From Deltaproteobacteria bacterium (GTDB lineage: Bacteria > UBA10199 > SBBF01): a stretch of 64,000 nt of DNA. The notes under the pieces are model-generated. The model was given only the letters and a program-made list of their open reading frames with translations, was not told where the DNA came from and did not search any database. This document shows, in pieces, positions 42,608 through 54,219 of this stretch. Within the stretch, counting starts at the first letter, position 1. Each line of letters opens with the position of its first letter. Location: assembly GCA_016183175.1 (NCBI GenBank), contig JACPFC010000026.1:41907-105906 (forward strand), in the 5' to 3' direction. The position numbers and the translations under genes were made by a program.

Positions 42608-42773
42608 CCGGAAAATTTCCAAGACGGGGAGATATCCGGGGACATTGTCAGCTCGTAAGGTTTACTTTCCATAAAATTTATTAATTAAAAAACCGCGCAA
42701 CTTTTTCGGCGTTGCGCCGATAATCGGATTAAATCCCTGGCAGGTTGCCGTTTTTTGATTTAGGGCACAAACA

Positions 42774-45617
42774 ATGGCCGACTTATTTTCACCCCTTTCC
42801 TTTGCGGGCTCTGCCGTTTCCGCTCTTGCTACTTATGCCCGTGCAGAGGTCGCTGAATATCTCGACGAAAACCTCTCTCCGGCAAAACTTGCCGGCGAGG
42901 CGCTCCGTAACGGCAAAGAATATCTCGATCTCATCGGAGACGCCGCGCGTTTTCTTCCGGCGCCGTTTAGCCCCTCTCCCATCCTTGCCTCCACCTCAAC
43001 AGCGGGCGACGGCTCCGTCACAGGAGGGGGCGGTGTCGAGGAGGCAGGGCCGACTTCCGGCGTTACTGAAGCCCCTCCGGCAGACGTGGCAGACCCACCG
43101 GCCGCGGCGCCGGAAGATCCGGCGCTTACGGATGAGGTAATTGGCCAGCGCCTCCAACGTTACGGCCTCCAAAACAATGAGTTTAACCGAAGGGCCTACC
43201 GTCAGGCCTACAACATCGGCAAAAGGGATGTCCCGCTCGATCTGACCGACGCGCAGATAAAAAAAATGGGGCTGACCGATCTCCCCAAGACAGTGAAGGG
43301 TGTTCCCGTCTGGGACATCGACCATACCAATTTCTTCTGGCGGCAATCGATTCCCACCACGGCTCTGGACTATGTCATCGGACAAATTGACGGTTTCCTG
43401 GAAAGAATGCATTCCCCCCTTCGCTGGAAAGGCGAAGCCCCCATTGTTGTCAATAATCAGTGGGGGGCGGGGCGCCAGGCCATGTTGCTGGGCTTTGCCG
43501 ACGGTTCCGAAAAAGTCATTCCCGTTGACAGCCGCGGATTTCCTTGGCGGCTGGCCGATCTCTCCATGCAATCGCCCGCCTTTGCCAAAGCCCTTTTGGG
43601 GATCGAACCCGAAGAGATGAACCGGATGAAAATCGAACGGGGGCATGACGCCACCCGTGAGGAGCTGATTCGAAAAGTCCGGACGGCGCCCAATATTTTC
43701 ACGTATGAGAATCTGCCGGCCGTGGTCAAGGAGGCCTTCGACCAGTATACGCGCAATCCCGAAGAGATGACCCCGGCCGAGTGGCTTGTCGTCGCATTGG
43801 AAACCAGAAAACCGGGAAGTTCCAAGACCAAACCGTGGTATTATCACGTCGTTGGCGAAAGGGTGATGGTAGCGCTTCACTCTCTGGGAGTGGGCCATGT
43901 GGACGACCGGCGGGAAACAGCCAGAAACGTCACGACGCCCGCCGCGCGAAGCCGTATTGTCCTCCTCACAAACCCCGAAGAGGTGGGAGAATTTGCCTGG
44001 GGAGGGGCCGCTACGATTCAGGCCGACCTTGTCAGGGGGACCTCGACGCATCAGACTTCCCTCATCCTTCAGGCGGTGGAACGACTCACACTCCCGTTGA
44101 CGGGGGAAGATGCCTCCTCCGGGGAGACTGCACAGGATGCGTTGCGCACCGGGGAGCAGGTGATCCAGATCCCCCTTTCACGCGGTGCAGGGGAGAAAAG
44201 CGTCATTGTCCTGCGCGTGCCGAAACCGCTTCCGGAAGGATCCTACGACTCCTCGGCTGACACGGTAATCATGTATGTCCCGTCTGTTGATTTTAATAAA
44301 CAGTATTTCGGTTCGAAAAGTCAGGCCCGCGGAACCATGGTCCGGGCGCACCTGGATGGCGCTACCCCTCCCATGAGGTTGTCGACGGAATATATCCGTT
44401 ATCTCGCCTCCAAGGGGGGATTTTCCATGCTGGAGATGGGGGGTTCTCTTTATCTCGCAAAAAGCCTGGTTGGAGAGGAGATGGATTGGCGGGAGGTGGG
44501 GCCGGAGGTCGGCATTTTTTCGGCCTTTGGGTTAGTGGGGGGTGCGATGGGGGAGCTCCGTTTTTACCGGGGACCTTTCGCCAACATCCTGACCCCCTTT
44601 GCCGCCATGTCGGCGGTGCAGGTCTATTACCACCGCGAGGTGACGCCGGTGGCCAACGCCGGAGTGGCCGGCGGTTTTGCCTTGGCGCACTGGGGGGCCC
44701 ATCGCTTCATCACCCAGCCGTTCATTGTCCAGCCGCTGGGGGCCCGTGCCATCCGTGCCATGCAAGCCGGCGAAGCGGGCAAGGCGCGTCTGGTGCAGAT
44801 GGGCATGAGGGGAGCCGCCGGCGCGGTGAGCTTTGGCCTTTCCACCGTCCTTTTTACCGGTTTGGAGTGGTGGGCCCGCGACAGCAGGATTGAATATTAT
44901 GAAAATTTCCGCCAAAACATAACCGACCGTCTCCTGAACAGTTATGTTGATTACCGCAAAAAGGCCTCTGTTCTGGAGGCAAAGGCCGCACGGGGAGAGG
45001 CAATATCGTCGGGAGAATCTGGGGAAGTCGATCGCCTCTTTAGCGGCTTTGAAGAAAATTTGGGGGACTCCGCCAATACCCCCTATCTGGTTGCAGGCGA
45101 TTTTCCCGACATTGAAGGGAAACACTACATCGAATCGCAGATTCAATATGCAACGCTCGGCAGAGAACTGGAACAGGAGGGGGATGAATATGTCCGGACC
45201 ACCCTCTATGAAAAGGGGTTTTCGGTCGGCCAAACCGACCTGATCAAGGCGGAACTGGACAAATATTTTAAAGACTCTGGAAAATTGGAAGAATTAAACC
45301 GCGCCAAACAGACTGCCGAGCGGGCAACAAAGGTGCTGGAGGCAAGACGGATGCAGAAGGTGATCGTGGATCAGGAACATCTGGAAGAGGCGGGAAACGA
45401 AATTTTAGGCCGGCTTGAGGGGAAGGTTTCCCTCGAAGAGGTCAAGGCCGTTTTTGAAGGGCTTAAAGGATACGAGCTGGCCTATGTCTGCGCCATGCTC
45501 CTTGAAAAGGAGCGCGGGAGAAGGGGGGAGTTTTTGAAGAGCCTCCCGGAGCGACCGATAGGGCCGGAACTGCCTGCTCAAGAGGTCGAGCCGAAGAAAG
45601 GATTGGAAGGAGAGTAA
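42774..45617 (+). CDS. Large hypothetical protein (947 aa), first gene of the inserted island
   Basis: Long ORF with ATG start. Has a Gly/Ala-rich hydrophobic segment (GIFSAFGLVGGAMGELRFY...GLSTVLFTGLEWW) and a C-terminal coiled-coil-like region. No family recognised. Confidence 0.6.
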   Translation: MADLFSPLSFAGSAVSALATYARAEVAEYLDENLSPAKLAGEALRNGKEYLDLIGDAARFLPAPFSPSPILASTSTAGDGSVTGGGGVEEAGPTSGVTEAPPADVADPPAAAPEDPALTDEVIGQRLQRYGLQNNEFNRRAYRQAYNIGKRDVPLDLTDAQIKKMGLTDLPKTVKGVPVWDIDHTNFFWRQSIPTTALDYVIGQIDGFLERMHSPLRWKGEAPIVVNNQWGAGRQAMLLGFADGSEKVIPVDSRGFPWRLADLSMQSPAFAKALLGIEPEEMNRMKIERGHDATREELIRKVRTAPNIFTYENLPAVVKEAFDQYTRNPEEMTPAEWLVVALETRKPGSSKTKPWYYHVVGERVMVALHSLGVGHVDDRRETARNVTTPAARSRIVLLTNPEEVGEFAWGGAATIQADLVRGTSTHQTSLILQAVERLTLPLTGEDASSGETAQDALRTGEQVIQIPLSRGAGEKSVIVLRVPKPLPEGSYDSSADTVIMYVPSVDFNKQYFGSKSQARGTMVRAHLDGATPPMRLSTEYIRYLASKGGFSMLEMGGSLYLAKSLVGEEMDWREVGPEVGIFSAFGLVGGAMGELRFYRGPFANILTPFAAMSAVQVYYHREVTPVANAGVAGGFALAHWGAHRFITQPFIVQPLGARAIRAMQAGEAGKARLVQMGMRGAAGAVSFGLSTVLFTGLEWWARDSRIEYYENFRQNITDRLLNSYVDYRKKASVLEAKAARGEAISSGESGEVDRLFSGFEENLGDSANTPYLVAGDFPDIEGKHYIESQIQYATLGRELEQEGDEYVRTTLYEKGFSVGQTDLIKAELDKYFKDSGKLEELNRAKQTAERATKVLEARRMQKVIVDQEHLEEAGNEILGRLEGKVSLEEVKAVFEGLKGYELAYVCAMLLEKERGRRGEFLKSLPERPIGPELPAQEVEPKKGLEGE

Positions 45618-45619
45618 TT

Positions 45620-53453: not shown

Positions 53454-53858
53454 TCAGGCCAACAGCCGGCTTATTTTAAGCGGCGCGATTTTTCGATGCG
53501 CCGTTTCGTCGAACGTCAGCCAGATCCCCTTGAGCATTTTGGCCAGAGCGACATAGGAGGCGTCGTAACCGGACAGCCCCATCCGTTGATACTTTCGCGT
53601 CAGATCAAAAAGTTCCCCGGTCATCGAAAAACGCCGGAGGGCCAGGACAAGCACCTGGTCCATCAGTTTCAACTGGCCTTCATTGGGGACGGGAACAAGC
53701 CGGTTGAAGGCATTGGCCAGTTCAAAATAAAAAAGCTCGGGGACGGCGTGAGTTTGGGGGGATTCGAGGATGTTTTGAAGGATTTCCAGCGCCGATTCGC
53801 GCCCTTTTTCCTCGACAAACCATTTGATGGCCACCGAGGCGTCAATGATTGGAACCAT
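53454..53858 (-). CDS. vapC: Type II toxin VapC (PIN domain)
   Basis: MVPIIDASVAIKWFVEE... PIN N-terminus. Confidence 0.75.
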   Translation of the reverse strand: MVPIIDASVAIKWFVEEKGRESALEILQNILESPQTHAVPELFYFELANAFNRLVPVPNEGQLKLMDQVLVLALRRFSMTGELFDLTRKYQRMGLSGYDASYVALAKMLKGIWLTFDETAHRKIAPLKISRLLA

Positions 53859-54111
53859 AACGGATCTCGCGCAGGACTTTCAGGGAGTCGACAGGAGAGC
53901 GGGTGGCCGACAACCGGGCCAGCTTGAGAATTTCGTCCCTTTTTTCTTTTTCCCGGTAGTCGATAAAACGTTCCTTGAACGCTTTCAGGGAAAGCAGTAC
54001 GGCAACCGGCGCCCTTCCTTTTTCAATCAAAAGGGGTTCGTCCTTCTTCTTCAGCCGCCTTAAAATCTTCCCGAACGACTGGCGGATTTGAAGGGCGTTG
54101 ACCGTATCCAT
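53842..54111 (-). CDS. Type II antitoxin, Phd/YefM family
   Basis: 89 aa, overlaps the vapC start. Its Phd-like N-terminus is LIEKGRAPVAVLLSLKAF. Confidence 0.65.
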   Translation of the reverse strand: MDTVNALQIRQSFGKILRRLKKKDEPLLIEKGRAPVAVLLSLKAFKERFIDYREKEKRDEILKLARLSATRSPVDSLKVLREIRYGSNH

Positions 54112-54219
54112 GTATCAAGTGTATATAAATGTGTATAGACACGTCAATATAAATTTGCCGGGCCGCCTCCATTGACTTTGGCGGCCCGACCGCGGTACAC
54201 CCTGTAATCATTACTTCTT

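Follow-up and report, generated by a model that had tools for sequence, protein, structure and literature searches.

A giant double-acyltransferase gene is the likely long-standing occupant of the ribD-ribE interval in an uncultured groundwater lineage

On a contig from a groundwater metagenome-assembled genome (MAG) recorded as "Deltaproteobacteria bacterium", we analysed a 64-kb stretch (the window; all coordinates are positions in it, on the plus strand unless marked) in which the riboflavin genes ribD and ribE lie 11.6 kb apart. The original prediction had described this interval as an accessory island inserted into the rib operon, containing three large proteins of no known family and four toxin-antitoxin (TA) modules, and had proposed that it is a defence or competition system. 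Its gene inventory and coordinates agree with our gene calls and with the Pfam and NCBIfam matches, and the gene order shows that the rib operon is indeed interrupted between ribD and ribE. The largest gene of the interval encodes a protein of 1516 amino acids (aa), which we call the giant. The large open reading frames (ORFs) of the interval and the flanking genes are as follows.

40892-41350, plus strand: nrdR, left of ribD
41468-42607, plus strand: ribD, the left flank, with Pfam dCMP_cyt_deam_1 and RibD_C
42774-45617, plus strand: 947-aa ORF, no family match
45620-46411, plus strand: 263-aa ORF, starting 3 nt past the stop of the 947-aa ORF
48107-52657, plus strand: 1516-aa ORF (the giant), with two acyltransferase domains
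54220-54840, plus strand: ribE, the right flank, with Pfam Lum_binding
54848-56074, plus strand: ribBA, downstream of ribE
56167-56679, plus strand: ribH, downstream of ribBA
56693-57148, plus strand: nusB, downstream of ribH

The large proteins had been expected not to be well-known housekeeping proteins, and they are in fact orphans or members of a rare family. Word-indexed homology searches returned only self-matches for the 1516-aa and 263-aa proteins, so an exhaustive HMMER search was needed for the giant family. An exact-match query with the giant returned no contig. With residues 330-1516 as the query against 1.84 billion representatives, this search gave 21 matches at E <= 0.001, corresponding to about 20 cluster representatives, and the strongest non-fragment matches were mostly 1300-1900 aa long. 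Scans of metagenome contigs for the 947-aa family and for the C-terminus of the giant found no relatives. Genomic context was recovered for most of the family members found by HMMER, and the loci that bear on the position of the giant gene are listed here, with the extracytoplasmic-function (ECF) sigma factor genes where they are part of the conserved order.

L006 (RibD 63% identical): ribD, a 333-aa orphan and a giant homologue, where the contig ends
L020: ribD, a 70-aa ORF and the giant
L021: ribD, with the giant 23 bp further on
L022: the giant, an AbiEii-type TA and ribE
L026: the giant, with ribE 10 bp further on
L023: glyA, nrdR, ribD, an 835-aa orphan, a 1760-aa giant, ribE, ribBA, ribH, nusB, M17N, ECF sigma and anti-sigma
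L027: as L023, with the giant alone between ribD and ribE (nrdR-ribD-giant-ribE-ribBA-ribH-nusB)
L009: at this site, a protein of 2014 aa that is a divergent superfamily member (hhalign to the family profile 98.8%, E = 5e-17)
L024: a family member away from the rib operon, in a lipid/glycosyltransferase neighbourhood
L025: a short contig, in which linkage to the rib genes is not readable

Because homologues adjoin ribD, ribE or both in the relatives, the giant gene appears to be ancestral at this site. Identity across the relatives ranges from 47 to 63% for RibD and from 28 to 74% for the giant, with L006, the closest relative, giving the top value for both (its giant homologue is 74% identical over residues 96-437) and the more distant relatives giving lower ones. 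Giant identity thus roughly tracks RibD identity, which points to vertical inheritance of the gene. The original prediction had itself suggested comparing the interval with related genomes and its codon usage with that of the flanks, and both comparisons went against an insertion: the largest gene is found at the same site in relatives, and the composition gives no sign of foreign DNA, with a codon-preference score (leave-one-out) of 0.131 for the interval and 0.131 for the flanks, a GC content at third codon positions (GC3) of 0.64 versus 0.67, and an overall GC content likewise indistinguishable from the flanks. The absence of an integrase or transposase, which had been noted before, also holds, as the annotated genes of the interval leave no space for one (the largest gap is 255 bp), and there is no tRNA gene in the interval. 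We therefore consider it likely that the interval between ribD and ribE is a long-established gene site specific to the lineage rather than a mobile island, and that the giant double acyltransferase is its conserved occupant.

In the relatives, only 10-60 bp separate the stop codon of the giant gene from ribE, and the genes from ribE to nusB may therefore normally be co-transcribed with it; here, the distance is 1.56 kb and includes two TA modules, one of them antisense. The loci closest by RibD identity (L006-L008, 56-63%) are labelled variously as "Deltaproteobacteria", "Nitrospira sp." and "Nitrospiraceae" in NCBI, and this lineage is probably misclassified or unplaced there.

The giant begins with a disordered N-terminus and a hydrophobic helix (residues 135-153), which lies ahead of the first of two acyltransferase domains of the LPLAT fold.

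48704-49306, plus strand: N-terminal LPLAT/PlsC-type domain, about residues 200-400, Pfam PF01553
51644-52471, plus strand: C-terminal second LPLAT-fold domain, about residues 1180-1455, with NHVGYND (H1230-x4-D1235) and GSGTMR

The first domain is recognisable by sequence. It matches PF01553 over residues 208-348 (26.0 bits, against a cut-off of 23), and the family profile matches PlsC from T. maritima (PDB 5kym) with E = 4.5e-14. Its HX4D block reads THESWTD (residues 217-223), with H218 invariant and the acidic D/E kept in all 12 aligned members, while G324, T325 and R326 of the FTPGTR block, as well as R264, are invariant in the family alignment. The remaining residues, around 1100, have no sequence match to any solved structure in a profile search of the PDB, and the second domain, which is not detected by Pfam or by sequence profiles, was recognised only through a confident structure model. 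This AlphaFold2 (AF2) model of residues 600-1516, built from a 17-sequence alignment, has a predicted local distance difference test score (pLDDT) of 81.6 and a predicted template-modelling score (pTM) of 0.85, and in it the C-terminal domain forms an alpha/beta LPLAT fold that can be superposed on solved members. An hhalign comparison of the two domains gives a probability of 93% (P = 2.5e-7) and aligns their HX4D and GTR blocks with each other; the C-terminal H-x4-D/E is kept in 14 of 14 members, and of the 13 members aligned at G-T-(R/M)-R, 12 keep it and one, the fragment P0018, has GSR instead. The roughly 500 residues between the domains (central bundles at about 680-1180) are helical and show only a generic talin/catenin-like similarity, and the tail (residues 1457-1516) consists of 60 hydrophobic Ala/Val/Pro/Gly residues with pLDDT below 30. 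The giant is thus a double-LPLAT acyltransferase of new architecture, and both domains look catalytically intact from their motifs. It falls far below all the curated NCBIfam equivalog cut-offs for PlsC, OlsA and YihG (TIGR00530, 31.5 bits against 102.95; YihG, 18.3 against 260; OlsA, 18.3 against 300), and it should therefore not bear the name PlsC.

Two relatives provide further indications of what such a protein may do. In L025 (94-5181), one gene encodes a 939-aa protein with the helical and C-terminal acyltransferase parts and the next gene a 739-aa PF01553 protein, and this division into adjacent genes speaks for a link in function between the halves of the giant; the order of the split genes is reversed relative to the fused form. 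L024 (4643-22921) has a family member of 1919 aa that is encoded away from the rib operon, beside a CDP-alcohol phosphatidyltransferase gene, in an envelope-lipid or glycolipid neighbourhood. Other genes around it encode a cadherin-like protein, a class I/II aminotransferase accompanied by a 3-beta-HSD/epimerase, glycosyltransferases and a PMT_2 protein.

Given two intact-looking LPLAT domains, a hydrophobic helix, the lack of a signal peptide in the giant and a paralogue in a lipid neighbourhood, the likeliest role seems to us to be a two-step one. The giant would be a cytoplasmic, probably membrane-peripheral enzyme, whose domains might act one after the other, each transferring an acyl group to an acceptor that resembles glycerol phosphate or a lyso-lipid, at the cytoplasmic face of the membrane, so that an envelope lipid would be made or remodelled while an alternative sigma factor is active. 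Analogous cases are GPAT plus LPAAT, which perform two acylations in succession, and the ornithine-lipid enzyme OlsF, to which we return below. If both domains are active, the giant would be a single-chain, two-step lipid acyltransferase and possibly a pointer to an unknown membrane lipid in this uncultured groundwater lineage.

The suggestion of an alternative sigma factor comes from the repeated element of about 50 bp that the original prediction had interpreted as marking cassette boundaries. The element is real, but the boundary role does not stand, since the repeat has the make-up of a promoter and is also found elsewhere. A TTTACT box comes first, followed by a stretch rich in A and T and then by GCAACTTT-N11-(G/T)CCGATAA. 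The copies, the genes that follow the one outside the interval and a possible regulator are given here.

42661-42723, plus strand: promoter P1, with GCAACTTT-N11-GCCGATAA at 42697-42723, 50 bp before the start of the 947-aa ORF
47168-47220, plus strand: partial promoter copy, in which the upstream half and the -35 are kept and the -10 is missing
47985-48049, plus strand: promoter P2, with GCAACTTT-N11-TCCGATAA at 48023-48049, 57 bp before the giant gene
30636-30610, minus strand: third motif copy, GCAACTTT-N11-GCCGATAA, preceding a 436-aa orphan
30593-29283, minus strand: 436-aa orphan, no usable PADLOC, PHROG, NCBIfam or lenient Pfam match
29281-26600, minus strand: 893-aa MopE/FG-GAP repeat protein, after the 436-aa orphan
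57679-58296, plus strand: ECF sigma factor, downstream of nusB
58321-59253, plus strand: zf-HC2/TPR anti-sigma factor, after the ECF sigma gene

The second and third copies in this list are identical at 50 of 54 positions, and a 26-nt core of the repeat occurs exactly twice, against 0 occurrences expected from shuffles. There are three exact matches to the motif in the window, against 0.16 expected even when up to two mismatches are allowed, and each of the three lies between genes, oriented in sense with a large orphan ORF that begins 17-57 bp further on. The motif recurs in other genomes. It precedes the giant, or the head gene of its operon, in L006, L021, L022, L023, L024, L025 and L027; it precedes orphans after ribD in L006, L008 and L009, with the orthologous element of L006 lying directly after ribD; and it is also found in the L001 cluster described below. 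Based on an alignment of 10 sites, we regard the repeat as a conserved, predicted alternative-sigma promoter from which the giant gene would be transcribed. We reject a cassette structure of the integron or transposon type, since recombinase genes are lacking and the repeated element is itself a promoter. In L001, a promoter-like AACATCT-N11-GCCGATAA is seen before a 350-aa gene. In L007 (4056-5835), the motif precedes the gene for a 557-aa protein, upstream of yceD, at the position taken by a Cofac_haem_bdg gene in L023 and L027, so the motif is not restricted to orphan giants.

The AAC core of the -35 and the AAC-N16-CGA geometry of the element are features that we take to be typical of ECF promoters, and the ECF sigma/anti-sigma pair downstream of nusB, which is syntenic in L023 and L027, is a candidate regulator of the motif. 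In the window, this pair is preceded, after nusB, by a Peptidase_M17_N-like gene of 177 aa (57145-59253 for the three genes). Beside the third motif copy, the MopE/FG-GAP gene adjoins genes for a Wzz/GNVR chain-length determinant and an SLBB (Wza-like) polysaccharide export protein (24313-26583), and the segment 31334-33210 encodes a UDP-glucose dehydrogenase and a NusG-like paralogue. Between nrdR and ribD (41342-41464), there is an imperfect inverted repeat of 46 nt, 76% complementary and with an inner 26-nt arm at 88%, that could be a terminator, an attenuator or an operator. An Rfam scan found no family, and no flavin mononucleotide (FMN) riboswitch, anywhere in the window, the sub-threshold matches being spurious microRNA models on this inverted repeat. 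The conserved promoter offers a handle for defining the alternative-sigma regulon of the lineage from sequence alone.

In contrast to the giant, the genes between it and ribD differ from genome to genome. This slot holds the 947-aa and 263-aa ORFs here, an 835-aa ORF in L023, a 333-aa ORF in L006 and a 70-aa ORF in L020, and it is empty in L021 and L027; pairwise hhalign comparisons of the 947-, 835-, 333- and 70-aa proteins and the orphans of L001 revealed no relationship. The slot would sit downstream of another copy of the giant gene's promoter, and each genome would have a different, unrelated orphan in it. Searches of Pfam (also at lenient thresholds), NCBIfam, PADLOC and PHROG placed neither the 947-aa nor the 263-aa protein in a family. 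In the 947-aa protein, which lacks a signal peptide, a disordered N-terminus rich in Pro and Ala leads to hydrophobic helices rich in Gly at about residues 550-700 and to a helical C-terminus; its gene has native codon usage, and its AF2 model, built from a two-sequence alignment, is unusable (pLDDT 36). Its single homologue among 5.8 billion proteins is P0003, 31% identical and encoded at a non-rib locus, L001 (GCA_016180855.1, JACPAL010000004.1, 1-12295), at the end of a run of giants with no Pfam match (at least 536, 1370, 1352 and 350 aa) that is followed downstream by genes for a TolC-like OEP, MlaC, a phosphodiesterase and TetR. The 263-aa protein has no homologue besides itself and consists of a Cys-containing N-terminal part, a Pro/Ala linker and a C-terminal segment (residues 202-220) that is hydrophobic by hydropathy.

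The remaining genes of the interval are the four TA modules that had been predicted (three VapBC and one AbrB-Doc), which the Pfam domains bear out; a fifth lies elsewhere in the window.

46456-46484, plus strand: promoter of TA module 1, sigma-70-like (11/12)
46496-46726 and 46723-47142, plus strand: TA module 1, ParD-like antitoxin and VapC/PIN, with an ATGA overlap
47332-47359, plus strand: promoter of TA module 2, sigma-70-like (11/12)
47398-47613 and 47610-47978, plus strand: TA module 2, AbrB antitoxin and VapC/PIN
52663-52692, plus strand: promoter of TA module 3, sigma-70-like
52702-52929 and 52939-53361, plus strand: TA module 3, MazE/AbrB and Doc (Fic/DOC)
54147-54118, minus strand: promoter-like site of TA module 4
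54111-53842 and 53858-53454, minus strand: TA module 4, Phd/YefM and VapC/PIN
30666-31291: fifth TA, a Phd/VapC pair, directly upstream of the third promoter unit

Each of the four has a toxin domain (three PIN and one Fic/DOC) and an adjacent small DNA-binding antitoxin, the ParD-like one scoring slightly under its Pfam cut-off (21.5 bits against 23); the genes of each pair overlap or abut (<= 9 bp), and every module has its own TTGACA-type promoter. They therefore look like autonomous, ordinary type II modules. Their presence is variable, as there is none in L023 or L027, an AbiEii-type TA in L022 and a single small minus-strand ORF in L009. A 53/54-bp direct repeat (47168-47220 and 47985-48039, 50/54 identical) surrounds TA module 2, and this, together with the missing -10 in the left copy, suggests that the module landed in the promoter of the giant gene and duplicated its upstream half. 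All four modules would have settled in the intergenic spaces of the locus in this genome, and the pair beside the third promoter unit indicates that TA modules adjoin such units outside the supposed island too. The locus would thus be a case of TA modules colonising intergenic and promoter space beside essential genes.

Taking these observations further, one can imagine that the giant, the hypervariable orphan slot and the GCAAC-N16-CGATAA promoter form a single undescribed, alternative-sigma-dependent regulon in this uncultured groundwater lineage. The giant might then make a novel diacylated envelope lipid or acylate the slot proteins, which might be membrane-inserting partners or effectors diversified by an arms race, and the location in the rib operon would couple expression to transcription of ribE-nusB. 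We put this forward tentatively, as a rather unlikely possibility.

Several points weigh against the reading that we prefer, that of an old site whose conserved occupant is a promoter-linked, two-step acyltransferase. The retention of the giant gene inside the rib operon has no explanation, and the 947/263 pair is linked to the giant by position only. L020 and L026 have no clear motif upstream of the giant, and no motif lies upstream of the ECF sigma gene, either here or in L023. In the window, the C-terminal domain has GTMR in place of GTRR as its block III and a degenerate block IV, so it could be regulatory instead of catalytic. Finally, the large proteins combine a lack of signal peptides with disordered N-termini and Gly-rich hydrophobic segments or tails, features that would also fit a different view of their function.

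According to that view, the promoter-linked large proteins (the 947-aa, 263-aa, giant and 436-aa proteins and their counterparts) are exported effectors or surface or competition factors of one alternative-sigma regulon. It would fit with the -10 of the element, which equals the sigma-28 consensus, with the rapid turnover of the slot proteins, with the MopE/FG-GAP protein of extracellular type in the operon headed by the third promoter copy, and with the position of the 947-aa homologue in L001 among giant orphans near a TolC-like OEP and MlaC. Nevertheless, the giant is inherited vertically in a housekeeping neighbourhood, and the -35 is unlike the TAAA box of sigma-28, so we regard this as unlikely. 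The associated proposal that export follows a flagellar-type or other signal-peptide-independent route, with the giant acylating lipids of a target cell or of its own outer envelope, is similarly doubtful, as we came across no secretion-system gene in any of the loci, the window included, and enzymes of the PlsC type normally work at the cytoplasmic face of the membrane and require acyl-ACP (acyl carrier protein) or acyl-CoA.

A horizontally acquired island, with the three large proteins as an undescribed defence or competition system stabilised by the TA modules, is in our view very unlikely and, as regards the giant, already largely refuted. It is true that there are four TA modules in 11.6 kb and one in the remaining 52 kb (four of the five in the window), that the large proteins are orphans or near-orphans, that what lies between ribD and the giant changes from genome to genome, and that a direct repeat surrounds TA module 2. 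However, the features that would define a genomic or defence island are not those of this locus: the giant occupies the same site in nine of ten informative relatives, at some loci without any TA; the composition is native; there is no tRNA gene and no recombinase; PADLOC assigned none of the three large proteins to a defence family; the repeated element is a promoter that is also present at a non-island locus of the window and in other genomes; and the recognisable domains of the giant are lipid-type acyltransferases rather than modules of the nuclease, NTPase or sensor kind. Absence from the relatives, and with it the behaviour of variable accessory DNA, is confined to the TA modules and the 947/263 pair. 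That unrelated DNA was joined between ribD and ribE in metagenome assembly or binning, a chimera that the MAG origin of the contig might bring to mind, is extremely improbable, given that two independent Logan read-set assemblies (SRR12113385 and SRR12113422; L004 and L005) reproduce the ribD-947-263 junction, that seven further assemblies, from other samples, show the order ribD-giant-ribE and that the composition is uniform.

Thus, our analysis removes a false lead, as there is no mobile defence island here, and puts a concrete, testable object in its place, namely a very rare family of 1300-1900-aa proteins with two domains of the PlsC/GPAT fold. What is notable at this locus is that this family is fixed in the rib operon, along with a conserved promoter and a hypervariable companion slot.

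These elements can be compared with known systems. The TA modules are like canonical type II systems such as VapBC and AbrB-Doc, and their sole peculiarity is their clustering in the intergenic spaces of the locus. The E. coli sigma-28 (FliA) promoter is TAAAGTTT-N11-GCCGATAA, and the element shares with such promoters the -10 octamer and the 11-nt spacing between octamers, whereas its -35 is GCAACTTT (GCAAC) in place of the TAAA box, and no flagellar or chemotaxis genes are among those found downstream of the motif copies. The octamer GCCGATAA has been described as the sigma-28 -10 consensus (PMC12784957).

With regard to the giant, the nearest structural relatives are the PlsC/AGPAT/GPAT enzymes (PF01553, 5kym). 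While PlsC has a single domain and about 250 aa, the giant has two such domains in a chain of 1300-1900 aa, to which it adds a helical spacer of about 500 residues, an extended disordered N-terminus and a tail that is hydrophobic and of low complexity. A functional analogue may be OlsF, in which one polypeptide with two acyltransferase domains performs two successive acylations to produce a membrane (ornithine) lipid (10.1101/2022.08.18.504050). OlsF is much smaller, lacks the helical spacer and has no significant sequence match to the giant, and its second domain is OlsB-like (an N-acyltransferase), in contrast to the second LPLAT fold of the giant. What the two have in common is the presence of two acyltransferase domains in one chain, one of the OlsF domains being PlsC/OlsA-like.

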